A stretch of DNA of 62,539 nucleotides, taken from the IMG/VR virus record IMGVR_UViG_2634166512_000005; one strand, given 5' to 3'. Below the pieces are notes generated by a model. That model worked only from the letters and a program-made list of their open reading frames with translations, was not told the origin of the DNA and ran no database searches. Source of the DNA: a virus. Its lineage: Duplodnaviria; Heunggongvirae; Uroviricota; Caudoviricetes. A program made the translations under genes and the position numbers. Positions within the stretch are counted from its first letter, which is position 1. Every line of letters begins with the position of its first letter. Positions 1-31,088 of the stretch are shown here, piece after piece.

Positions 1-678
1 TTATTCCTGTGCCCAGCCAACCCTGTATGCCAGGATCTCATCCGCACTGCTCAGCGATTCCAGGTCCTTCTTCATGGTGCGCTGGCGAATGTGGATTTCC
101 ATCCCTTTAGTGAACATCGCCTGCTCTGCCGCTTCACTCAGCGCAATAAGCTCTTCTGCTGTCACCGGCACATCATTGTTTTCCGCATCCGTCCAGAAAA
201 ACGCCTCCGGCAGTTTCCCCGCTTTCGCTGCCGCCACCGATGGCTCAAGACGCGTCTGCGTTGACTTCCCGTAGTCCCATTTCCGGCCATTGTGCTCAAA
301 CGTGTAGTTCGCCGCCTCCATCGCATTACGCCAGGTGTTTATTTCATCGCCCTTCATCCCGCGGGCTTTCTCCGCGGTCAGCAGGTCCGTGATTTTCTCC
401 CCGTCAAAGCCCCAGCGCCCCGAGATATCAGCTTTGCGGTTTTCTTCCGTATCCGCCACCTCCGCAACACTCTGATTCGCTGGCCACAGCGCCTGTACAT
501 CCCTGCTGATATCAGTGATAACCCCTGCTCTGTTATAAACCACTTTCAGCGTATCCGGCGAAAACAAGGGCTGACACTCATACCAGTCCTGACCATCCTC
601 TGATTTCAGGTACATCGCCCCCGGAACATCCGGATTTTCCGGCGTATACCAGATGAAGTTTTTTATATTTACCATCAT
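1..678 (-). CDS. tfa: tail fiber assembly protein
   Basis: ORF 1..738; EDGQDWYE...PDTLKVVY...ADISGRWGFDG pattern as in P2 gpG/TfaE-type chaperones; start placed at ATG 678. Confidence 0.7.
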   Translation of the reverse strand: MMVNIKNFIWYTPENPDVPGAMYLKSEDGQDWYECQPLFSPDTLKVVYNRAGVITDISRDVQALWPANQSVAEVADTEENRKADISGRWGFDGEKITDLLTAEKARGMKGDEINTWRNAMEAANYTFEHNGRKWDYGKSTQTRLEPSVAAAKAGKLPEAFFWTDAENNDVPVTAEELIALSEAAEQAMFTKGMEIHIRQRTMKKDLESLSSADEILAYRVGWAQE

Positions 679-686
679 TACCCCGC

Positions 687-899
687 TTATCGTTGCCCCG
701 CTTCTCTCCAGATCGGCATATTCTCCGGCCCCACACACCTCTCCATTCCTGCCGGGGCTGCACTGGCAGAAAAGACCTTATACACGGCACTCTCCACAAC
801 AACACTGTCTTCCGGCCAGCTTCCGGCAGCCTCATAAACCGAACGAAGCGAGGCCGGATAAAACGCATTATTTGATGGCGAAAAAAAATACTTTTCCAT
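687..899 (-). CDS. small hypothetical protein between stf and tfa (possible tfa N-terminal remnant)
   Basis: 70-aa ORF starting 10 nt after stf stop with RBS AGGAGGGAGA; no recognisable family. Confidence 0.3.
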   Translation of the reverse strand: MEKYFFSPSNNAFYPASLRSVYEAAGSWPEDSVVVESAVYKVFSASAAPAGMERCVGPENMPIWREAGQR

Positions 900-908
900 T
901 CTCCCTCC

Positions 909-2621
909 TCAGTAGCCAATAGCCTCCCAGTAAAACAGCCCGTATGTGTCCTTACTGACCGTCAGTATTACCGACTTCAGCAACGGTTCTGAAAGGGCAT
1001 ACCCCGTGAAATTTCCCGGTGAACCTACCGGTGATACAATGACATTCAGCGCCGCTGACGGAAAAGCTATCGGGAAATAGATGGTATGTGTGTCTCCTTC
1101 ACTGGTTGGCCGGACAACTTGTTTCTGCCCCCATTGCCGTATTCTTCCTGTTGCCTCATCCCGCTCCCATCCGTTCACATCCAGTTTCGCTGTTGAGGGG
1201 CGTCTGATGGAAGTGTAGTTAAACCGCCACTCATAGCTCTTTATACTGCCGCTGACCACGCAGGTGCAGTCCGTGCCATAAAACATATCCCAGGGCCGGT
1301 CATCACCTGCGCTGATCCGGACTATCGCATTCTCCCATGACCCCATCACTTCAATGGCGCATCCTCTCAGGGTGATTTTTTTCTTACCCAAATCAGTATC
1401 CACATCCGTGATCACACGGTTACTGTTGAGTAACCGCGTCGTGGTCATTACCCAGTAAGGGCCCTCAAAAGCACCCTGTGATTTCAGCCAGTTGATGAAC
1501 TCTTCTGTCGTCCACTCCCCTTCACCTGTTTTGAGATCACGCCCGTAAGCTCTTGCCACCCCAAGCTTACGAATAAACGCCTCCTTGTCGGCAATATCAT
1601 CCAGGCTGGCAGACTTCCCTGCCGGACCCGCTGGCCCCTGCGCCCCTCTCTCGCCTTTATCGCCCTTTGGCCCCGTCGCCCCCTGCGGCCCCACGGGCCC
1701 CGTTGCACCTCGCTCACCTTGCGGCCCCCGCTCACCGGCAGGGCCTGCCGGGCCGGGGTCACCTTTATCCCCTTTTACCCCCTGCGGTCCTCTGGGGCCG
1801 GTAGCGCCCTGTGGACCTCGTTCTCCGGGCTCGCCTTTTTTCCCCTCAGGACCGGCCCCCCCCGTCGGCCCCTGAGGCCCCGGCATCCCCTGCTCGCCCT
1901 TATCTCCACGGGGCCCCGCTTCTCCACGCGGCCCTGCGGGTCCCTGTGGACCAGCAGGCCCCCGGGGTCCTGCCGGGCCTCCCGGGTCTCCTTTATCACC
2001 TTTCGGTCCGACAGGCCCCTGCTCACCCCGTTCCCCCCGTGGCCCCTGCCCGCCGGTTTCACCACGCGGCCCGGCAACACCGGCCTCGCCCTTTGCGCCC
2101 TGAAGCCCCTGCGGCCCCCTCTCACCACGCTCACCCTTTGGCCCCCGCTCGCCGGTATCGCCTTTTGGCCCGGGAATACCCTGTGGCCCCGTGTCTCCCT
2201 TATCCCCCTTCGGTCCCCGCGCATTCTCTGCCCGTTTCTTCGCTTCCTCTGCACTCGCCGCTGACGCTTCCGCACGTTTCAGGATTTCCGCGGCCACCGC
2301 TTCCAGCTCTGCAAGGGCTTTCGGGTAATACTGTGCGTCCTCCAGGTCCATCAGAAATTTATTCAGCGTTCCCGGTGCAGACTCCGCCTTCACCAGAATG
2401 TCACCCACATATGACGGCGCGTACCCTTCCGTGTTCAGCGTCACCCGGTACAACCCCGGCTCAACATCCATACTGTAACTGCCGGTTTCCCCCGGCTGAC
2501 CATACGCCACCGTGGTGACAATCACCGTCTCCGTTGTGCGGCGCGCTTTCAGCTCTATCGTGCATCCCGGTACCGGCTTACCGGCCCCGTCCTTCAGCAC
2601 ACCCGATATTCTGACTGCCAT
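909..2621 (-). CDS. stf: side tail fiber protein with collagen-like Gly-X-Y repeat region
   Basis: 570-aa ORF; long uninterrupted G-X-Y run ([16 protein letters not shown]...); RBS GGAGG. Confidence 0.8.
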
Positions 2622-2633
2622 GGATTTCCTCCA

Positions 2634-2668
2634 TAAAAAAACCGCAGGACCGATTTCCCGGCCTGCGG
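2634..2668 (-). terminator. Rho-independent terminator just upstream of stf RBS
   Basis: minus-strand hairpin CCGCAGGCCGGGAAATCGGTCCTGCGG followed by T7. Confidence 0.55.
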
Positions 2669-2765
2669 TAAAATTTGTGATTTATTGATGTTAAAAAGGT
2701 GCCATCCGGCTGATCACCCTCAGCAACCGGTCGGCGGGGAAGGTACACTCCCCCGCCACGGTTTC

Positions 2766-2906
2766 TTACCGCTTACACTGTAAGAACGCCGCAATCTCCG
2801 CGCCCGCTATCCGGAACCGGAACTCGCACAGTGAACTGTGGGTGATCCAGATAATGAGCACTACCGTGATACAAATCACGGTGGTTTTTAACGGTTTTTG
2901 CGACAT
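2766..2906 (-). CDS. Hok/Gef-family type I toxin-like small membrane protein
   Basis: 46-aa ORF MSQKPLKTTVICITVVLIIWITHSSLCEFRFRIAGAEIAAFLQCKR (below the 60-aa ORF track cutoff); hydrophobic helix then SLCE-F-R...EIAAF signature of Hok family; overlapped out of frame by ORF 2773..3051 as mok overlaps hok. Confidence 0.5.
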   Translation of the reverse strand: MSQKPLKTTVICITVVLIIWITHSSLCEFRFRIAGAEIAAFLQCKR

Positions 2907-3104
2907 AACGCTTGCTCCTTTTACGGAGAGGCGCTAACCTTCTTCTTGCTGAAGGAAGAACGTCAGGCCTCGGGTTAAACATGAATGTTTTGTCCGGGGC
3001 CTTTTCACATCCGGCCTTCAGGTGTTCCCTCCGGCCATCAGCCAAAGGCACCCGCGCATACTGTACGGTTTTTGTCTCCTTCCGGCAATCCCGGGGCGCG
3101 ATGT

Positions 3105-6100
3105 TCAGCGGATACTGATCCCCGCGCTGTTTTTCTTCACCACTATCGCCTGAAGGTTACTGATTCGTGAACTGCCCCAACTGTTATTCTGACGCCGTGA
3201 GCTCACGGTAAAACTCAGGGTGATATGACCACCGCCAGCTGGCATATCGATGATCCCGCTGAAAACTCCCGGCTCTTCCACTGACCTGCCTGAATAAATC
3301 CGGCGTCCGTTCTGATCAACATGCAGGAAGCACTCTGTCCAGATGTCATTACTGGTGCGGGATTCCTGTTTTGACCCGACATAGATTATCGGCGGGATTA
3401 TAATCTGCCGGTCAAAGCTGTGATCGTCATACACCGTCAGCGTCCGTGTACCGTTCGCAAGGTAACTACCATCCACCGGAAAAGCCACCCCTGCACATTT
3501 CACCAGATCACCAATAATGTTCTCCGCTTTCAGCGTGCCATTTATCGTACAGTTCTCCGCTATCACGACATTATTGAGCGTGCCCGAGTTCGCACTGATA
3601 TGTCCGCTGATGTCAGCATTGCGGGCCGTCAGCCTGCCCTCCGGCGTCAGGGAGAACGTCGGGGGATTGCCGGACGAGGTGATACTCACTGCAAACAGTC
3701 GCTTCAGGAACACGTCGTTCATGAACAGCTGATTCCCCTGTGCCACAAACAGCGGCGTGGTGTTGCCGTTCTCCGGGGTAATCATTGCGATACGGTCCGC
3801 CTGCAGCAGAATATTGCTCAGCGTCTGGCCATCAGCATCCTCAATCCCCGCACCAATACCGGCAACATACGGAATGCCGTTTTTCGTTTTCTGCACCTTC
3901 AGCATGTACAGCGCTGCCAGCTCATCATTCGTGTCTGACTGGACCTGCTGTATCTGCTGTATGGTCGCGCTCTGGTCTTCCAGCTTTTTATCCGTGGTCG
4001 AGGTGATTTCACTCCCTTTGTCATCCACGTACTGGCGGACCTGCGCTATCTGCCTGGCGTTTTCCTCCGTGCTCTGGCTGACTGTCTGTGTGATTTCACT
4101 GCTCACCCGGTCCACCTGCTGACTCACCTGCGCGATGGCCAGCGTCTGGTCCTCATTCTTTTTCGCAACCAGCTGCGTGAGGCTGTTTTCCGCCTCCCCG
4201 ATTTTTCGGGTCACTTCCGCAACATCCGTCTCCAGCCGCTGGCGGATGTCTTCTTCCAGTTGCGTGACCTCAGTACGCAGGGCTGACGCATCAATACGCT
4301 CTTTCAGTGCCTTCCCCAGCAGCGCCTCATCTATCAGCCCACGGAAAATTTCCAGATACCCTTCACCATCATTGCTGGCCTGCCCGCTGGCCTCCACAAA
4401 CGCAGATTTCCCCACCAGGTTGACGCTGCGCACATAAAACCAGAAAATCCTTCCCCGGCTTAATGTGCGGACCGGAGACGCTCCACTGGCTGCCGGTACC
4501 CAGATAACGGGCAGAGGTTTCCACCTGTGCCGTGTCCGTGATGCGTTTTTCTGAGAACCAGAATTCATGCTGTACCGTCGGGTCATACACCGTAAGATGC
4601 GGGACCACCGTTATCTGATAATACCCCGGCGTCAGTTCAATGCTGGCCGGTGCTGCCGGTGCGTTAATCCGGAACGTGGTGGTGGCAGGTTCGCCCTGCT
4701 GGCCGTAGCTGTTTATCGCCCTGACCGTCAGGGTGTATTCCCCCAGAGGCAGGCCACTGAAACGGTGCTCCGTGTCGGCAGTGATGGCGCTGGTCACCAG
4801 GCGGCTGTTTTCACCGTTTCCGCTGGTCAGGCGCAGACTGAAGCGCACGCCCTTCACCCACCCGCGGCGTGTCCCATTTCGCCAGCGCCAGATACTGGCC
4901 GTCTGAGGCACTCACCTCCACCGTGAGGTGCTGCACTGCCGGCGGGATGACGCTGTTCAGTGAACCGGACAGCGGCTCAAAGCGGGCCCCGTTATCCACG
5001 ATGGCTTCTTTTTCCGGTACGTGCTGCACTGCCGTGATGGCAAAGGTGCCGTCCGTGTTTTCCCGGATGGAAACACAGCGGAACAGGCGACGACGCAGTG
5101 ACGGCAGGGAGAGTCCCCACACACCGTATGTCGCCACGCCATCAGGCAGAATGCTGACCTGTATCCGGTCAGGGGCGGGGTGTGCAGTGATGTCCACGCG
5201 CACCGGCTTACCGCTGCCGTTAATCAGGTTCACCGTCGATGTCCCTGTTTCCGGCAGTGTCACCTCCACGGTCCAGCGTCAGTGTGCGGCTGGCGGCATC
5301 GATGGACAGGATACGTCCGCCGGTCAGGGTCCCGGCATAGTCGTTATCACAGATTTCAATGATGTCACCGGGCGTGTGCCGCAGCCCCTGTGACCCGAGC
5401 GTGAAATCCACCGTCTGCGTTTCCAGCAGTTCGGTCTTTATCACCCACAGTCCGGCACGGTGAGCCTGACCGCGGCTGGTACAGCCGAACGCATCCATCT
5501 TCAGCAGGTTGCGCCCCGTAGCGCAGGATGGCGTCCGGGTCTTCCACCAGTTCCGTGACGTCTGCCAGCCGTTCTGCGGGTCAGTGTAATTCACCTCCAC
5601 CGCCGTGTGCCGTCCTTCAGGGCACTGAAGCTGTAGCGGAACCCCACCGCCGTTATCATCCACCACCACATCGCTGTTCGTGTACGGCCACACCACATCC
5701 GACGGGCGGTCCTGAACGAACGTCAGCGTCTGGCCGTTCCATACCGGCATACAGCGCATCGCCGAGCAGAAATCCCCCCAGGACATCCCAGACCTTTACG
5801 CTGCTGTTGACAGGTACGCATTGAAAGTCATCCGCGGCTCTGTTCCCCCGAAACCATCCGGGACCGTCTGGTTCGCAGTACTGGCCCGATGGCATACAGC
5901 GCCCACTTGTCCACATCCGCCGCCCCCCAGGCGTTTTCCCATCCCGTAGCGCGGGTGGGTCAGCATGTCCCACCAGGCACCAGGCCGGTTATTGCTGTAT
6001 GCGGTTTCAGACTCCCGTCCCAGATACCGCTGTAGGTGCGTTTTTCCGGGTCATAGTTTGACGGCACCTGAATGATGCGGCCGCGGATATGGTAGTTCAC

Positions 6101-6803
6101 CACCATCTGCTGGCCACCGAACTGCTCCGCATCCACCTGCAGCCCCACAATGGCCGTGTTCGGGTAACACTGTTTCACATCGATGATTTCGGTGTATGAC
6201 GACCACAGCGTTCTGTTCTGCAGCTGGTCCGTGGTACTGTCCGCCGTCACCCTGACCATCCGGATGTTAAAGGGGCGCTCAGGGAGATTATTCAGAATCA
6301 CCGACGTCAGGTACTGCGAGGTGGTCTTGCCGTTAATGGTGACATCCTTCTCCGTCACCCAGTTACCGTTACGCTCAAGCTGAATCAGCAGCCGGACAGA
6401 AGAGGGATTACGGTCACCCTTTGAGGTGGTCTCCCACCAGTGACTGCACCCCGAAGGTGACCCGCAGACGGTCAATGTTCGCTGACGTGATGGTGCGCGT
6501 CACCGGCTTTGCCTTCGTCACCTCCACGCCCAGTGCGGTTTCTGCCCCGGAGGACTCAAAGCCTTCCGGCGGTGTCTGCTCCTGCTCCCCGGCACGCCAG
6601 ACGGCGGTCACACCGTGTATCACGGGATTACCGTCCGTGTCCGTCAGCGGGGTTTTGTTCCACCAGAATACTCTGCAGTCCCTTCACCGGGCCTTCCACC
6701 GGTCCCTCACCGATGGCATCAATCACGCTCATCATCTGCGTGGATTTGAGATTGTCCTTCGCCTCACGCGCGGTGTGTGCCCCTTGCCGCCCCCTTTACC
6801 CAC
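3105..6803 (-). pseudogene. J: host specificity / central tail fibre protein J, broken by several frameshifts
   Basis: ORF fragments 3105..4586, 4369..4911, 4811..5269, 5220..5786, 5656..5973, 5960..6475, 6414..6623 are co-linear with the intact copy 17503..21189. Confidence 0.75.
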
Positions 6804-6872
6804 TCTGTCCCCCTCTCCTGTCTGATGTCTGGATCTGTTTAATGCCCAAAACAACAGCACCCCCCGGAGGGT

Positions 6873-7012
6873 GGCCTGTGTCATGACGGAATAAAATTTC
6901 TGAAATTCTCACATTTTTGCAAATACTGGTGGCGCTTATAATTATCCTGCGTTACCATTTTTTTCCGTGACATAATAATTCCTTACAGTTAATCTTCGTA
7001 TCTCTTCTTGGA
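6873..7012 (+). promoter_or_regulatory. remnant of I-J spacer cassette (promoter TTGCAA..TATAAT) cut at the deletion junction
   Basis: matches 21263-21398; the terminator hairpin is replaced by cro-like sequence from 7013. Confidence 0.4.
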
Positions 7013-7100
7013 GGTGATACACCTAAAAGCTTAGCCATTGCTGATTGCCACCGACAACAGCACAAGCTCGTTTGAATGAATAGTTCTCTCTTTGTTTCAT
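7013..7100 (-). pseudogene. 5' remnant of ydaS/cro-like gene (about 29 codons)
   Basis: matches 55985-56074; carries an in-frame 3-nt difference from copy 2 (MKQRENYSF vs MKKENYSF). Confidence 0.45.
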
Positions 7101-7228
7101 CGAATGAACTCCCAAAAAACACACAATAAATATTAGGCTGCGCCTAACATTATTGTCAATAGGCTGTGCCTAACACACTAAAGGTAGGGATTGGCCTAAT
7201 GCGATGCGCATAGGAGGCTATTAAAGCA
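7101..7228. promoter_or_regulatory. OR-like operator/promoter region
   Basis: three TTAGGC-N3-GCCTAA-type inverted repeats (TTAGGCTGCGCCTAA, TAGGCTGTGCCTAA, TTGGCCTAAT) between divergent cro-like and repressor genes. Confidence 0.45.
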
Positions 7229-7704
7229 ATGCTTAGTGGTAAAGACTTAGGCGAGCGATAGAGCAGGCCATTAAACAAAAAAATTGCATCAGGAGCCGTC
7301 AAATCAAAGGCGAGATCGCACGCCATTTCAACGTCCAACCACCATCAATTCATGACTGGATGAAGAAAGGTTCAATAAGTAAAAACAAACTTCCAGAACT
7401 ATGGGCTTTCTTTTCTGATGTAGTTGGTCCAGAGCATTGGGGCCTTAACAAATACCCCATAACCACCCCTTCCAGTTCAGATACAAACGGTGCACTTTCA
7501 AACATAAACAGCCTTTATCAAGCCGCCTCTGATGAAAAAAGAGCAATTGTAGCTTTCCTCTTATCTTGGAATGCTACGGAACCTGGTTGGGTTGATCATG
7601 ACGTTCGCGCCTACATTGCTGCTATGGAAATGAAGGTAGGTAACTACTTGAAAAATCAAGAATCAGAACGAAAAAGCCAGAACATCACCAAGACAGGAAC
7701 TTAG
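7229..7704 (+). pseudogene. RacR-like prophage repressor, frameshifted near the 5' end
   Basis: three 1-nt indels relative to 56199..56675; ORF 7360..7704 keeps the C-terminal 114 aa. Confidence 0.5.
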
Positions 7705-8016
7705 ACTTATATGGTCCGACGGGAAACGCCTAGATCCCGTTAGTTAACTCCTATTACCTCTCCCACATACCATTGTCTATTAGGTTGCACGCAAAACATT
7801 AGGCATAGCCTATTGACAACAGATTAGGCATTACCTATAGTTCCCCATGCCACCCCGCCCCACAGAACGCCAGGCAATACTTCGAGTTACCCGGCAGTGG
7901 TCAGGGGTTAAGTAGCCAGCCCGAGGCGTATGAACATGACGGCGGGAACACTTTTGTATAACAGCGCAGCAGGTTTTTAGTTCCGCGCCCCGGCGTTAAG
8001 GGGGAATGAGGTCAAC

Positions 8017-8169
8017 ATGGATACGCTCAATCTTGGCAACAACGAATCTCTGGTATGCGGCGTGTTTCCCAACCAGGACGGCACGTTTACCGCGATGACG
8101 TATACCAGAAGCAAAACGTTTAAAACTGAAGCTGGCGCGCGTCGCTGGTTAGCCAGAAACACTGACTGA
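8017..8169 (+). CDS. YdaF-like small protein
   Basis: 50-aa ORF MDTLNLGNNESLVCGVFPNQDGTFTAMTYTRSK..., RBS GAGG; resemblance to Rac YdaF is recalled, not searched. Confidence 0.45.
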   Translation: MDTLNLGNNESLVCGVFPNQDGTFTAMTYTRSKTFKTEAGARRWLARNTD

Positions 8170-8180
8170 TGAGGTTGACG

Positions 8181-8540
8181 ATGGAATTTAAAGATTTACC
8201 AGTACCATTCCAGGAAATGGCAGCGAATATAGTTCGTTCTCAACTGGCGACTCTTGACCTGAGTACCGTAGAAAAAGAAACCATCGATAATATATCCGGT
8301 AACGTGCGTCGAACCTTTATCGGGCTGTACGAAGAAAAGTGGCCATTCGGCGGACAAAATTCGCTTGAAAACAAGAATCAAGCGAATGATGAGAAGCTGA
8401 AACACGTTATCGCCTTACTACTGGAAGATGCAAAACGTCTACAGCAACTGGAACCAAATGCAGGCACCGAAGCCCGCATCTGGATTGCCATAAAATCACT
8501 CAAATGTGAAAGCGATGATTATTTAATAAACCATAATTAA
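8181..8540 (+). CDS. hypothetical early protein
   Basis: 119 aa from MEFKDLPVPFQ; coupled to the upstream ORF stop. Confidence 0.5.
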   Translation: MEFKDLPVPFQEMAANIVRSQLATLDLSTVEKETIDNISGNVRRTFIGLYEEKWPFGGQNSLENKNQANDEKLKHVIALLLEDAKRLQQLEPNAGTEARIWIAIKSLKCESDDYLINHN

Positions 8541-9176
8541 AACAACTCAGCTTTCTGAAGAGCTACCGAAGAAATTGCCATAATAATATGTTTTCTTATA
8601 GAGGGGTTAGAAATATGGGCCAGCATTATAGCAGCCCCATATAACAGAAAGTATTTTAAATATTACGCCGTATCTTGTGATTGTTTTTTAATATATTCAT
8701 ACAAGCGCACAAGTTGTTTCAACTCTTCAAAGCACATCGCGGAATTTTCAATTTTTCCGGCGTTGATTAGTGCCAGAAGAGCCTGATGTGCGCAAGCATA
8801 TGGATCATTACAGGGCTAATAATATCAACTTGCATATTATCCTCTATAGAGGTTCCGGGTTAATGATGGAGACCAACACGCTGTCACGTGTGGTCGTGTG
8901 CGGACACGGATAAGAATCCGGCACTGACAGTTTGCTGAAAGGATATTTCCCTGAAAAGTCAGGGCATAACACGAAAGCGCACGGCGAAGTTAGTCTCTCT
9001 GTACAGGTCGTCGTTAAATGTAATTCGATCATGCGCTTCCGGTTGTGGCAATCCGCGAAATGGCGCGGCGGTAAGTATGGCTGGGGTTTCCTCCATTGCT
9101 CCAGAAAATGCACCGGGTTGTCAGGTTGACCATACGCCTGAGTGACAACACCGCCACAACAACCTCTGTTATCACT

Positions 9177-9215
9177 TTTCTGGTGATTCGGCGGAAATGG
9201 ATATCCGCCATTTTT
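9177..9215 (+). ncRNA. dicF: DicF-like small RNA (short form)
   Basis: UUUCUGGUGA 5' segment then GGCGG...CCGCC hairpin and U5; sits upstream of dicB as in the Qin dicBF operon. Confidence 0.5.
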
Positions 9216-9392
9216 AAAGTGTATTTTGTGATGCGGTGAATGCGGCTAAGCGCACGCGGAACAGTTAAAACAAGCGGTCTTTTACTGGCGTAACAGACAT
9301 CAACTAACAATCCGGCGTTAATTGTTAACTGGTTAACGTCACCTGGAGGCACCAGGCACCACATCACAAAATTCATTGTTGAGGACGCGATA

Positions 9393-9581
9393 ATGGAAAC
9401 GTCACTACCAAACGTTAATACGTCTGAAGGGTGTTTTAATATTGGTATTCTGCTCAGTAACCGGGAGTTTACTGAGGACGCCATCAGGATGAGAAAATAT
9501 GAGCCTTATCTTCTCAATGATAATTCCATACTCTCCAGAATTGCCCTTCTTGAACTTGGCATTTTCGGAGGGCAGCAGTGA
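9393..9581 (+). CDS. dicB: cell division inhibitor DicB
   Basis: 62 aa, METSLPNVNTSEGCFNIGILLSN... Confidence 0.75.
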   Translation: METSLPNVNTSEGCFNIGILLSNREFTEDAIRMRKYEPYLLNDNSILSRIALLELGIFGGQQ

Positions 9582-9868
9582 GTTCAGCGTTTGCACTGAT
9601 GATGACGGTTTTTCTTATAACAGGTGAGCCACAGAATGTGATTACCGGAATTTATGCCAGTAAAGAATCCTGCCATCAGGCAAGAGACGAGCAAAAAATT
9701 TCCGGTGAATGTCTCCCGTTAAACAAAGTATCGCTGTACCTGAATACGAAATACCGGCTGGATAACCCGCCAGCCATATTAACGCCATACCCGTTGATTA
9801 AGTATGCCAGCAATGGCAGGGATTCGTACAACCTTAAAATAGTTATGAGGTTTATCAATGAGCACTGA
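9578..9868 (+). CDS. ydfD: YdfD-like lysis protein, 3' end read-through after a 1-nt deletion
   Basis: [19 protein letters not shown]...; copy 2 terminates at ...NNEIPAG. Confidence 0.5.
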
Positions 9869-12262
9869 TAAAGAAGAAATTGCACTGTATTACGAAGCCA
9901 AAAATGACAAAGTCAGAAAACGCCTTGGGATTAAAGGCGGTTTTTACTGGCGCACAGCAAAAAAATTATCGGTTGCAATATCACGGGGTGTTGTCGCAAT
10001 GGACGATGCTGGATTTGACGAAGAGGATTTCAAAAAACCTGTTCGCGTGAATTTGCCCATTGTTAATGACCTGCCGCCTGAAGGTGTGTTTGATACCGAA
10101 TTCTGCAACCGCTATGAAAAAGGTGGAGAAGATGGCATCACAATGATATTTATAGCGCCTTCCCCCTCAGTTCAGGACAAACCAGCCAGCACTGACAATA
10201 CCAACGTCAATGGCGAAGACATGGCTGAGATTGAGGATAATATGCTCCTGCCGATTTCCGGTCAGGAACTGCCCATTCGCTGGCTTGCGCAACATGGCAG
10301 CGAAAAACCGGTAACGCACGTTTCACGGGAAGAACTTCAGGCATTACATATCGCACGAGCTGAAGAACTGCCTGCTGTTACTGCCCTGGCTATTTCCCAC
10401 AACACAAAGCTGCTCGACCCGCTGGAGATTCGCGACCTTCAAAAACTGGTACGCGACACAGACAAAGTTTTCCCTAATCCCGTTAATTCCAGTCTGGGGT
10501 TAATGACTGCTTTTTTCGGAAGGCATACCTGGACGCTGACTATACCGATCGAGGTCTGCTGACAAAAGAGTGGATGAAAGGAAATCGTGTTTACGCATCA
10601 GCCGCACGCGCATCCGGCGCTAATGCTGGCGGAGGAATTCTTACCGATCGCGGTGAAGGTTTTGTCCACGATGATGCGTCAGTGGAACGTGACGTTGCCG
10701 CTGGCGTTCTGGCCCGTTCAATGGACATCGATATTTACAATCCACATCCGGCACACGCCAAACGCATTGAAGAAATCGTTTCAGAGAATAAGCCGCCCTT
10801 TTCTGTTTTTCGTGACAAATTCATCGCCATGCCTGGTCACCTGGATTATTCCCGCGCGATAGTGGTTGCATCCGTGAAAGAAGCACCAATTGGTATCGAG
10901 GCTACTCCCCACCGTGTTACCGAATATCTGAACAAAGTACTGACCGAAACCGACCATGCCAACCCTGATCCAGAAATCGTGGATATTGCCTGCGGTCGCT
11001 CCTCTGCTCCAATGCCGCAGCGTGTAACAAAAGAAGGAAAACAGGATGATGAAGAAAAACCGCAGCCAACTGGCGCAATGGCAGATGAACAGGCAACGAC
11101 TGAAGCAGTGGAACCGGATACAACTGAACATAATCAGGACACGCAGTCGATGGATGCTCAGCCACAGATAAATTCTGTTGATGCGAAATATCAGAAACTG
11201 CGTGCAGAACTCCATGAAGCCAGGAAAAACATTCCCCCCAAAAATCCTGTCGATGCAGATAAATTACTGGCTGCTTCTCACGGAGAATTTGTTGAAGGGA
11301 TTAGCGATCCGAATGATCCGAAATGGGTGAAGGGGATTGAAACCCGCGATTCTGTGAACCAGAACCAGCACGAATCGGAACAAAACGAGCCGGAAACGAA
11401 ACAGCCTGAACCAGAAGAGCAACAAGAACCGGAAAAAGTCTGCACCGCCTGCGGTCAGATCGGCGACGGCAACTGTCCTGACTGTGGCGCGGTAATGGGC
11501 GACGCAACATACCAGGAAACATTCAACGAAGAAAGCCAGGATGAAGCCCGGGAGAAAAGATCCAGAGGAAATGGAAAGTGCCGTATACCCGAACAAGGAG
11601 TGCTCCGAAGGCGATCAACATGCCAATGGCAATAATGAAACAGGCGAGACAGCAAATCCCTTAATTAAGGTGAACGGTCATCGCGAAAGCACATCCACCA
11701 GCAGGTTGTGGCACCATCTGATGATTGACCTTGAAACAATGGGCAAAAATCCTGATGCGCCAATAAACGCTCTGGCCGGTAAGTTTTTTGATCCGGCAAC
11801 CGGAGAGATGGGGCCAGAATTCAGCAAAACTATCGATCTGGAAACCGCGGGCGGAGTCATCGATCGGGACACCATTAAGTGGTGGCTGAAACAGTCACGG
11901 GAAGCACAATCAGCCATTCTGACCGATGAAATCCCGTTGGATGACGCACTGTTGCAATTACGGGAATTTATCGACGAAAACTCCGGTGAATTTTTTGTTC
12001 AGGTCTGGGAAATGGAGCCAACTTCGACAACGTGATTTTACGCCGTTCATATGAACGGCAGGAGATCCCCTGCCCGTGGCGTTACACCAATGATCGTGAT
12101 GTAAGAACGATTGTTGCCCTGGGGCTGGTGATGGATTTCGATGCTCGAAGTGTCATCACATTTGAGGGTGAACGCCATAATGCCCTGCACGATGCGCGTT
12201 ACCAGGCAAAATACGTTTCAGCTATCTGGCAAAAACTGTTCCCGAATCAGGCTGATTTTTAA
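9858..12262 (+). pseudogene. large exonuclease-like early protein (DEDDh C-terminal domain), split into four ORFs
   Basis: ORFs 9858..10562, 10574..11635, 11541..12035, 12032..12262 are co-linear with intact 58831..61233. Confidence 0.65.
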
Positions 12263-12328
12263 TGTTCAACCCATATCGCCGCCCACCAGCTATAGTGGCG
12301 GCGGTCATGCTGTAAGGCACGTGACCAC

Positions 12329-29703: not shown

Positions 29704-30030
29704 TCATAACACCGTCGGACACCGCAAATCGTAAATCAGCACGGAAACAGAAAACGGCAGCTCCCCCTGAAGCAGTTCTTCCCGCTCCGCAAGATCCGGA
29801 TTCCGGTACAGCATCCCGGTCAGCCGCATGGCAGCCCCCTTCATCCGGGTTAATGCCTCGCCCGGGATCAGTTCACCGTCCTCACGAATCACTTTATCCC
29901 GGCTGCCCTGAATGTAGGCCAGCAGCACGGCGGTAGCCTGACGAACCTTGTCCATCAGCATGTCATCATCCGCGTCATGGTCGACACGCAGATGTGCCTT
30001 GATCTCTTCCAGTGTCAGTAATGCCGTCAT
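29704..30030 (-). CDS. head-tail connector (gp6-like) protein
   Basis: 108-aa acidic ORF. Confidence 0.55.
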   Translation of the reverse strand: MTALLTLEEIKAHLRVDHDADDDMLMDKVRQATAVLLAYIQGSRDKVIREDGELIPGEALTRMKGAAMRLTGMLYRNPDLAEREELLQGELPFSVSVLIYDLRCPTVL

Positions 30031-31088
30031 TTTCCGCCTCCTGCATCCCGCCCACGTTTTGCAGCCAGGGTCCAGGCTGATGAATGAGCTTCTCCGGGTT
30101 TATCACCGGTCATACTGTTGCAGTGCCACAGCGAGCCCCCCCATGTCACCGTATCGCCGGGGTGGTAGGTTTCACCGGCTCTGAACACACCGCGGTAGAG
30201 CATCACCGGCAGGGAAAATGTTTTTTCCGTACGCTGACCGCTGCTCTGCCGGATCACCACAGAGAACAACCGTTCACCCGTCATACTGACGTCAATATCC
30301 GCCACCCCGTCAACCAGGCATTCCCATCCCCGCATCCCGTGCGTTTTTTCATACGCCCGCCAGAGTCCGCCCAGGTGTGTGGCATACGTGCCCCGGGGAA
30401 AGGATTTTTGATCGTCAATGGCGGGGAGTATTTCCAGTGCCGTGGCATCACGCCCGTCCTGCGGAGCCGGCAGGGCACTCACCGCATCCAGAACCGCCTT
30501 CTGCAGAACATCCGGATCGTAGTCACGACCATCACGCGGAACAGGAATATGGCTTACCGCCTCCTTCACCATCTGTTCAAGCATCGGATGCACATCATCC
30601 GGGGTGATACTTTTACCGTCTGCCGGCTGCGGAATATTTGCGACCGCATCATTCACCGCCTTCTGCAGAACATCGGGATCATAGTCACGACCATCTCGCG
30701 GAACAGGGATATGGCTTACCGCCTCCTTCACCATCTGTTCAAGCATCGGACGCACATCATCCGGGGTGAGACTTTTACCGTCCGCTGGCTGTGGAATATT
30801 TGCGACCGCGTCATTCACCGCCTTCTGCAGTACTTCCGGATCGTAGTCACGACCGTCACGCGGAACAGGGATATGGCTTACCGCCTCCTTCACCATCTGC
30901 TCAAGCATCGGACGCACATCATCGCCCGTCACGCACTTCTGTAATACCACAGACAGGGAAGCCAGTTTTTCTTCAAACGTTTGTGCCTGCGCGGCTATTT
31001 TCCCCTCAAATGTGCGCTGTAAATCCGCCAGCACTGCGGAAAATTCTTCACCCAGCGCACGGATAATGGACAGTTCACGTTCATTCAT
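30027..31088 (-). CDS. head-region protein with three tandem ~55-aa repeats
   Basis: 353 aa; repeat DDVRPMLEQMVKEAVSHIPVPRDGRDYDP.VLQKAVNDAVANIPQPADGKS.TP three times. Confidence 0.6.
   Translation of the reverse strand: MNERELSIIRALGEEFSAVLADLQRTFEGKIAAQAQTFEEKLASLSVVLQKCVTGDDVRPMLEQMVKEAVSHIPVPRDGRDYDPEVLQKAVNDAVANIPQPADGKSLTPDDVRPMLEQMVKEAVSHIPVPRDGRDYDPDVLQKAVNDAVANIPQPADGKSITPDDVHPMLEQMVKEAVSHIPVPRDGRDYDPDVLQKAVLDAVSALPAPQDGRDATALEILPAIDDQKSFPRGTYATHLGGLWRAYEKTHGMRGWECLVDGVADIDVSMTGERLFSVVIRQSSGQRTEKTFSLPVMLYRGVFRAGETYHPGDTVTWGGSLWHCNSMTGDKPGEAHSSAWTLAAKRGRDAGGGK

Follow-up and report, generated by a model that had tools for sequence, protein, structure and literature searches.

Between the tip attachment protein gene J and the tail fibre gene stf, the window (the whole stretch of DNA analysed, 62,539 nt) carries a small gene, hok, read from the minus strand at positions 2766–2906 and coding for a peptide of 46 residues (MSQKPLKTTVICITVVLIIWITHSSLCEFRFRIAGAEIAAFLQCKR). 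Its neighbours are set by the stop codon of J (3105–3107, minus strand) and the ATG of the tail fibre gene (2621, minus strand): the ORF that ends at 3105 encodes the C-terminal portion of J, and the one that begins at 2621 encodes a collagen-repeat prophage tail fibre with phage_tail_N, Collagen, and Gp53-like_C domains. The same CDS recurs, base for base, at 17164–17304 (minus strand) in the complete Stx prophage copy, where J is intact (17503–21240, six GpJ Pfam domains), and all the remaining parts of the cassette described below are repeated there at +14398. Because the two copies are identical over 2116–4446 and 16514–18844, they are one observation and not two. A preliminary description of this DNA had located both copies of hok correctly but had omitted their strand, which is minus and co-directional with J and stf.

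The window as a whole consists of a full prophage and a tandem copy without the 34.6-kb middle (1–13568 against 14403–21393 and 55983–62539); in the deleted copy, tfa–stf–hok–J′ is joined straight to the exonuclease-to-integrase arm. The prophage copies differ only by single-base indels, many of them in short homopolymer runs, and by a few substitutions that cluster at segment ends; the indels disrupt J in the first copy and stf in the second. They look like long-read sequencing error and are possibly an assembly artefact. Hallmarks of an Stx-converting phage are found at 44675–46547 (minus strand), among them a 319-residue ORF of the RIP family (StxA-like, 45246–46205), with three tRNA genes at 46299–46547 and the sRNA STnc100 at 44675–44890 (minus strand); a DUF1737/SASA-domain esterase-like ORF lies at 42499–44463 and Q at 48238–48780. 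A direct repeat of 281 bp with 92.5% identity (30481–30761 and 30643–30923) sits inside the ORF 30027–31088. The nin/Q region holds a second, canonical hok/sok locus (50639–50963, minus strand; RF01794 113 bits), whose Hok is HokD-like and 50 residues long (MKQQKAMLIALIV...AYESEK) and is extended upstream, in frame, to an ORF of 70 residues. The complete prophage has two unrelated hok loci, and a third hok copy stands in the adjacent deleted prophage.

The 46-residue peptide has a single N-terminal hydrophobic helix (about residues 8–23, with the hydropathy peak at residues 5–24), followed by SLCE and then by AEIAAFLQCK with a second cysteine. L26-C27-E28, E37, and C44 fall in the columns conserved in R1 Hok and the HokD-like peptide, and also fit the family logo given by Escalera-Maurer et al. 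(bioRxiv 10.1101/2025.08.07.668861). The preliminary description had recognised a Hok/Gef signature by eye and proposed alignment to the family models as a check: the peptide scores 43.5 bits against Pfam PF01848 (Hok/Gef; E 2.4e-11, gathering score 22), in an alignment spanning profile positions 8–42 of 42, and matches PHROG 251 (“MokW-like host killing”) at E 3.4e-21, which puts the signature far beyond chance. Two narrower NCBIfam models are less accommodating, NF007279 (Hok family) giving 37.0 bits against a cut-off of 73 and NF007290 (HokA) 38.2 bits against 89; the peptide belongs to neither model, and it is not HokA. Relatives with 52–98% peptide identity are found in E. coli, Salmonella, Serratia, and Yersinia by protein database search, where those of the last three genera likewise go under the name Hok/Gef. 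The evidence supports a genuine Hok/Gef-family toxin gene in the J–stf gap of both prophage copies.

As a toxin gene, the locus is already known, through RefSeq annotation, a survey catalogue, and reported toxicity, and is ordinary; it therefore carries little weight as a discovery. A search of STEC chromosomes with a 551-bp query around the hok ORF finds loci that are 99.8% identical, annotated in RefSeq in the order gpJ, Hok/Gef family protein (WP_000078853.1), prophage tail fibre, which agrees with the J stop and tail fibre start of the window and with the earlier placement of the locus in the slot where lambda has lom. Of 5426 complete E. coli genomes, 1749 contain related loci by a more sensitive search, and among the matches listed for E. 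coli genomes nearly all carry the Hok/Gef annotation, as intact genes. Both the peptide and the 141-nt ORF are string-identical to construct 79_1563 of Escalera-Maurer et al. (bioRxiv 10.1101/2025.08.07.668861), described there as a “high-abundance cluster” and cloned as plasmid LRP163. In that study, 42 of 45 Hok homologs tested were toxic on arabinose induction, and the only non-toxic ones named are 19_179, 60_1482, and 69_1540 (bioRxiv 10.1101/2025.08.07.668861). Since 79_1563 is absent from this list of three, we infer by exclusion that it is toxic, as an over-expressed CDS only and from a preprint. The toxicity-on-expression experiment proposed in the preliminary description has in this sense been reported already, with a result that is positive by exclusion (bioRxiv 10.1101/2025.08.07.668861).

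The surrounding RNA was analysed on a comparative set of 15 distinct homologous loci (peptide identity 52–93%, DNA identity down to about 75%), which come mainly from E. coli RefSeq matches, a scan of genome contigs having given 5 loci. The hok promoter is predicted at 3060–3088 (minus strand), beginning 17 nt past the J stop, and consists of a −35 TTGCCG (3088–3083), a 17-nt spacer, and a −10 TACAGT (3065–3060). It agrees with the consensus at 8/12 positions; the 13 homologs shown in full retain TTGCC and TAnAnT, which are not kept in L007 (the −35) or L008. The full-length hok mRNA is predicted to run for about 360 nt (2693–3053, minus strand), from a +1 at about 3053 (GGGUGCC), the point at which the Rfam leader model RF01794 comes into alignment, to the U5 after an fbi-like segment, and its Shine–Dalgarno AAGGAG (2915–2920, minus strand) is hidden in a local hairpin with an upstream CUCC. 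Hairpins had been claimed 3′ of hok and are indeed there, in the form of the fbi-like segment with U5 (2693–2714) and of a strong intrinsic terminator (ACCGCAGGCCGGGAAAUCGGUCCUGCGGU followed by U7; 2635–2669, minus strand), which closes the cassette just ahead of the stf ribosome-binding site. A scan finds no terminator-like site between the J stop codon and hok.

The mRNA has the long-range pairing expected of the family. A tac-like 5′ element (3034–3053, minus strand) has two alternative partners, one at the 3′ end (fbi) and the other at +47 to +57 (GAAAAGGCCCC); the fbi-like 3′ element AUCAGCCGGAUGGCACCU (2697–2714, minus strand) forms 17 bp with the 5′ end in the MFE structure and is followed by U5 (2697–2693). 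Rfam RF01794 aligns end to end (model 1–157) over 2895–3053 with E 3.8e-10 for the 801-nt stretch searched, at 50.3 bits, which is under the gathering score of 59; at gathering thresholds Rfam gave a sok/hok match only at 50789–50963, and the J–stf locus needed a permissive search. The approximately 360-nt hok RNA folds with z = −8.4 to −8.8, none of 100 shuffles being as good. Its 5′–3′ duplex, at −30.9 kcal/mol (z = −5.4) in the window, is kept in all 15 homologs, at energies between −21.6 and −31.2 kcal/mol and z-scores between −3.1 and −5.6 relative to 3′ ends shuffled by mononucleotide; we used duplex energies rather than column-wise tac–fbi counts because MAFFT misplaces a 1-nt gap in the window 5′ end.

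The alternative partner is seen in two ways: a duplex scan puts the second-best partner of the 5′ end at +30 to +60 in 14/15 loci, and the RNAalifold consensus over the 15 loci pairs the 5′ end with +47 to +59. In R1 hok mRNA, the two alternative partners are fbi and ucb (PMC9841398). Of the cells in the consensus structure, 96.6% are paired, compared with 38–47% in slid controls, and 15 pairs have a compensatory change, against 6.5 ± 1.7 in shuffles (0/500 reach 15) and 2–8 in slid controls. A further conserved long-range helix joins the hok start codon region AUGUCGCAA to UUGCGGCGU in the codons for EIAAF (alignment A3 columns 154–162 with 270–278, in the window about 2906–2898 with 2790–2782), with 100% of cells paired over the 15 loci. 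This helix may be the reason why the codons of MSQK and AAF are invariant at the DNA level.

On the opposite strand, the preliminary description had suggested a search for a Sok-like promoter and antisense RNA, and in silico the outcome is positive. The Sok promoter is predicted at 2912–2940 (plus strand), with a −35 TTGCTC (2912–2917) that overlaps the hok Shine–Dalgarno, a 17-nt spacer, and a −10 TAACCT (2935–2940). It is weak in comparison with the consensus (6/12 positions). The −10 is invariant in 15/15 loci; the −35 is TTGCTC in 13/15, with TTGACT and TTGCCT in the other two, a conservation that is confounded by the overlap with the Shine–Dalgarno. A sigma-70 consensus scan of 2500–3250 reports no promoter, and both the hok and the Sok promoter are predicted from position and conservation only. 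The Sok-like RNA itself is predicted at 2947–3005 (plus strand), about 59 nt long, and would consist of a variable single-stranded 5′ tail of about 18 nt, a hairpin (GGCCUCGGG...CCGGGGCC), and UUUU, with a fold of −21.4 kcal/mol in the window. Across the 15 loci it would be 58–62 nt long, and it varies most in the 5′ tail. In every one of the 15 loci the hairpin is more stable on the Sok strand (−17.9 to −24.1 kcal/mol) than on the hok strand (−10.9 to −14.1 kcal/mol), an advantage of 4–13 kcal/mol, because the G–U pairs of the Sok strand correspond to C–A mismatches on the other; in each locus the hairpin is succeeded by a U-tract. This strand asymmetry is the best in-silico support for the prediction of a real antisense RNA.

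Less straightforward is the question of mok. An out-of-frame ORF overlaps hok at 2773–3051 (minus strand), with 92 residues if read from its GTG and 69 if read from an ATG at 2982, and had been likened in the preliminary description to mok. Part of the likeness holds: the ORF ends 7 nt ahead of the hok stop, and its relative frame is that of R1 mok, since the R1 coordinates (mok ATG at 116–118, hok ATG at 174–176; Le Rhun 2022, PMC9841398) place mok out of frame with hok. An objection to the analogy, that mok should be an in-frame extension of hok, falls away, R1 mok being out of frame (PMC9841398). The in-frame arrangement does occur, in the HokD-like locus of the window and in an IncFII plasmid locus. 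In the latter (L003, pMTY1886, 344–559), Hok is 100% identical to R1 Hok and an upstream ATG in frame gives a fusion ORF of 71 residues; the published R1 mok lies 58 nt upstream of hok, out of frame, and a 1-nt difference in the leader would reconcile the two. The R1 mutation T315A, reported as Hok Y48N (PMC9841398), is by our codon reading also a mok stop.

The other part of the likeness is weaker. On the predicted mRNA, the GTG (3051–3049) falls at +3 to +5, and because of this position the ORF cannot start there; the internal ATG at 2982 is without a good Shine–Dalgarno. Eight of the 15 homologous loci, including the closest relative (L009, 94.6% identity), offer no start codon, whether canonical or one of the near-cognates scanned (CTG, ATT, ATC, ATA), for any frame extending over the hok start, and Pfam, PHROGs, and NCBIfam give no family match to the product of ORF 2773–3051. 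A conserved GAGG box occupies the same position as in the R1-type L003, where GAGG stands shortly upstream of the ATG; in those loci that we inspected by eye in the alignment, no AUG, GUG, or UUG follows this box at 7–9 nt. At +44 to +47, a conserved GAAGGCCnGAUGUGG site offers a potential start for a leader ORF, and is also explained by RNA pairing; leader ORFs from this site vary in frame, and their ends are scattered between −101 and +134 with respect to the hok ATG. Judged by these sequences, ORF 2773–3051 resembles mok at this locus and is not a conserved element, and we call no mok.

Three settings are represented among the homologs: the J–stf gap of lambdoid prophages, the position after lom in Stx phages of the 933W/Sp5 type, and that after ogr in P2-like prophages. 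Whatever the flanks, the conserved block runs from the −35 of the hok promoter to the fbi-like GGCACCC, and because these boundaries are the same after J, lom, and ogr in different types of prophage, the hok unit is read as an autonomous cassette. Cassettes after lom belong to L002 and L013, both of the 933W type. In L010–L012 and L014–L016 (E. coli chromosomes, about 1480–1900), a hok cassette of about 395 bp immediately follows the ogr/Delta zinc-finger gene where a P2-like prophage ends, and the P2-like cassettes abut host genes, namely ihfA/pheT, serS, or a tRNA-Leu/Cys/Gly cluster. Two loci, L004 and L005, are on contigs labelled Planococcaceae bacterium UBA3378 and Vagococcus sp. and encode a P2-type hok peptide identical to that of E. 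coli, which suggests enterobacterial contamination or mis-binning; the L004 leader contains a masked run of N.

We therefore read the approximately 395 bp from 3088 to 2693 (minus strand) as a self-contained type I toxin–antitoxin cassette of the hok/sok type, a moron between gpJ and the tail fibre gene of an Stx-converting lambdoid prophage, and assign this reading a probability of about 0.8. As far as comparison of sequences can establish them, the toxin family, the RNA architecture, and the autonomy of the cassette are established. If the cassette works as R1 does, a weak constitutive promoter would give a stable, closed, untranslatable full-length mRNA held by tac–fbi pairing (PMC9841398); slow trimming from the 3′ end would take off fbi, the 5′ end would re-pair with +47 to +57, and the region complementary to Sok (+49 to +107) would become exposed. 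The short-lived Sok would bind there, and RNase III would degrade the duplex. Were Sok synthesis to stop, Hok would be made, enter the inner membrane, and kill or lyse the cell. Candidate triggers, again by analogy, would be the loss of the prophage, the shut-off of transcription by an infecting phage, or DNA damage with induction. The benefit is most likely prophage addiction or protection of the abortive-infection type, which we take as the default role.

Late read-through after induction could have a second effect, a contribution to lysis, as with hokW–sokW of Sp5 (PMC8621323), given that hok is co-directional with J and stf and that no terminator lies between J and hok. Taken further, Hok would be a lysis helper instead of an addiction toxin: the Q-antiterminated pR′ transcript would pass through J, hok, and stf, the 5′-extended hok RNA would escape the tac–fbi lock and outnumber Sok, and Hok would aid holin and endolysin late in the lytic cycle. 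The direction of the gene and the uninterrupted passage from J speak for this, as do the position of the cassette in the late operon, in the classic moron slot beside lom or in its place, and the finding that deletion of hokW–sokW in Sp5 delayed lysis and halved phage release (PMC8621323). It is nevertheless the less probable account, though one to be taken seriously. The cassette also turns up at the far end of P2-like prophages, behind ogr and away from any lambdoid late operon, which argues against help in lysis as its sole role, and everywhere it keeps its own promoter, its fbi-like element, and Sok, none of which a pure late gene would need.

A rather improbable alternative is that the locus is a decayed or silent relic, whose peptide is toxic if forced but which is unexpressed or unregulated, as proposed for the chromosomal hok genes of E. 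coli K-12. The promoters are weak in comparison with the consensus, mok is not conserved, the RF01794 score is under the gathering threshold, and the annotation of one homolog (L013) gives it a frameshift; inactivity of chromosomal hok/sok loci is an earlier claim mentioned in bioRxiv 10.1101/2025.08.07.668861. Decay is nevertheless hard to square with an intact ORF, with RNA elements that are kept, through compensatory changes, across loci about 25% different in DNA, and with related loci in 1749 of 5426 genomes that are annotated as intact among the matches listed. Finally, a chance small ORF in a spacer, with structure due only to transcription terminators, could appeal to the shortness of the J–stf gap and to the strong terminator at 2635–2669, but is refuted by the Pfam (E 2.4e-11) and PHROG (E 3.4e-21) matches. 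The 52–98% identical peptides of four genera and the reported toxicity of the identical CDS (bioRxiv 10.1101/2025.08.07.668861) also speak against it, and we give it practically no credence.

Within the reading as a type I cassette, what is left as novel is that a prophage-borne Hok clade is apparently regulated without mok. One could imagine, as a speculation that we consider unlikely as a whole, that the prophage-borne 46-residue Hok clade (clusters 72 and 79) has no fixed mok frame, that Sok either acts solely through RNase III decay or blocks a short leader ORF, variable in frame, whose start would be the conserved GAAGGCCnGAUGUGG site (+44 to +47) just ahead of the Sok duplex, and that Q-dependent read-through overrides the tac–fbi lock and makes Hok a lysis accessory. 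The number of hok loci in the window also bears on experiments, in that deletions of a single locus, such as that of hokW–sokW, may underestimate the effects of Hok on lysis and on the release of Stx phage.

The position of the cassette recalls the morons of lambda (lom and bor), which are likewise extra genes with their own promoter and terminator between late genes. The slot of lom between J and stf is exactly that of hok in the window, and in 933W-type phages hok adjoins lom. The products differ, that of lom being an outer-membrane protein and that of hok a toxin with an RNA antitoxin.

A related system with experimental proof of both toxin and antisense antitoxin is hokW–sokW of Sakai prophage 5 and 933W (Takada 2021, PMC8621323), where deletion in Sp5 has the effects on lysis and phage release given above. 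Like the window locus, it is a prophage-borne type I toxin–antitoxin system of the Hok family in an Stx phage. HokW is, however, a different peptide of 51 residues, and we rejected the identification of the 46-residue locus with hokW–sokW; the 46-residue type is a second locus, beside lom, in 933W-type phages, usually annotated “hypothetical” and outside the study of PMC8621323. The counterpart of hokW–sokW in the window may be the HokD-like locus at 50639–50963.

With the prototype, the R1 hok/mok/sok system (parB), the window locus shares the Hok/Gef signature of LCE, E, and AAF, a structured mRNA of about 360–400 nt, and a 5′ element that can pair with either the 3′ fbi or an internal box. 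The predicted antisense promoter is at the homologous place (TTGCGC-17-TATCCT in the R1-type L003, TTGCTC-17-TAACCT in the window), for a putative RNA of about 60 nt, and the overlapping ORF is in an R1-like −1 relative frame and ends a few nt ahead of the hok stop. The differences are as clear: the two Hok peptides are only 30% identical and have 46 and 52 residues, the window peptide being without the AYESGK tail of R1 and ending in LQCK(R/Q); mok is essential in R1, whereas in the clade of the window the mok ORF is not conserved; and the R1 system is on a plasmid, the window cassette on a prophage.

At the protein level, the window locus does not differ from clusters 79 and 72 of Escalera-Maurer et al., and the relatives of the 933W/Sp5 type and of the P2 type are the 72_1589 and 72_1621 of that survey. 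The survey dealt with the CDS only and says explicitly that Mok, Sok, and the mRNA structure are left out of its annotation, so that the RNA anatomy described here (the promoters, the 5′–3′ lock, Sok, and the lack of a conserved mok) is an addition to it, and gives exact targets for mutagenesis.
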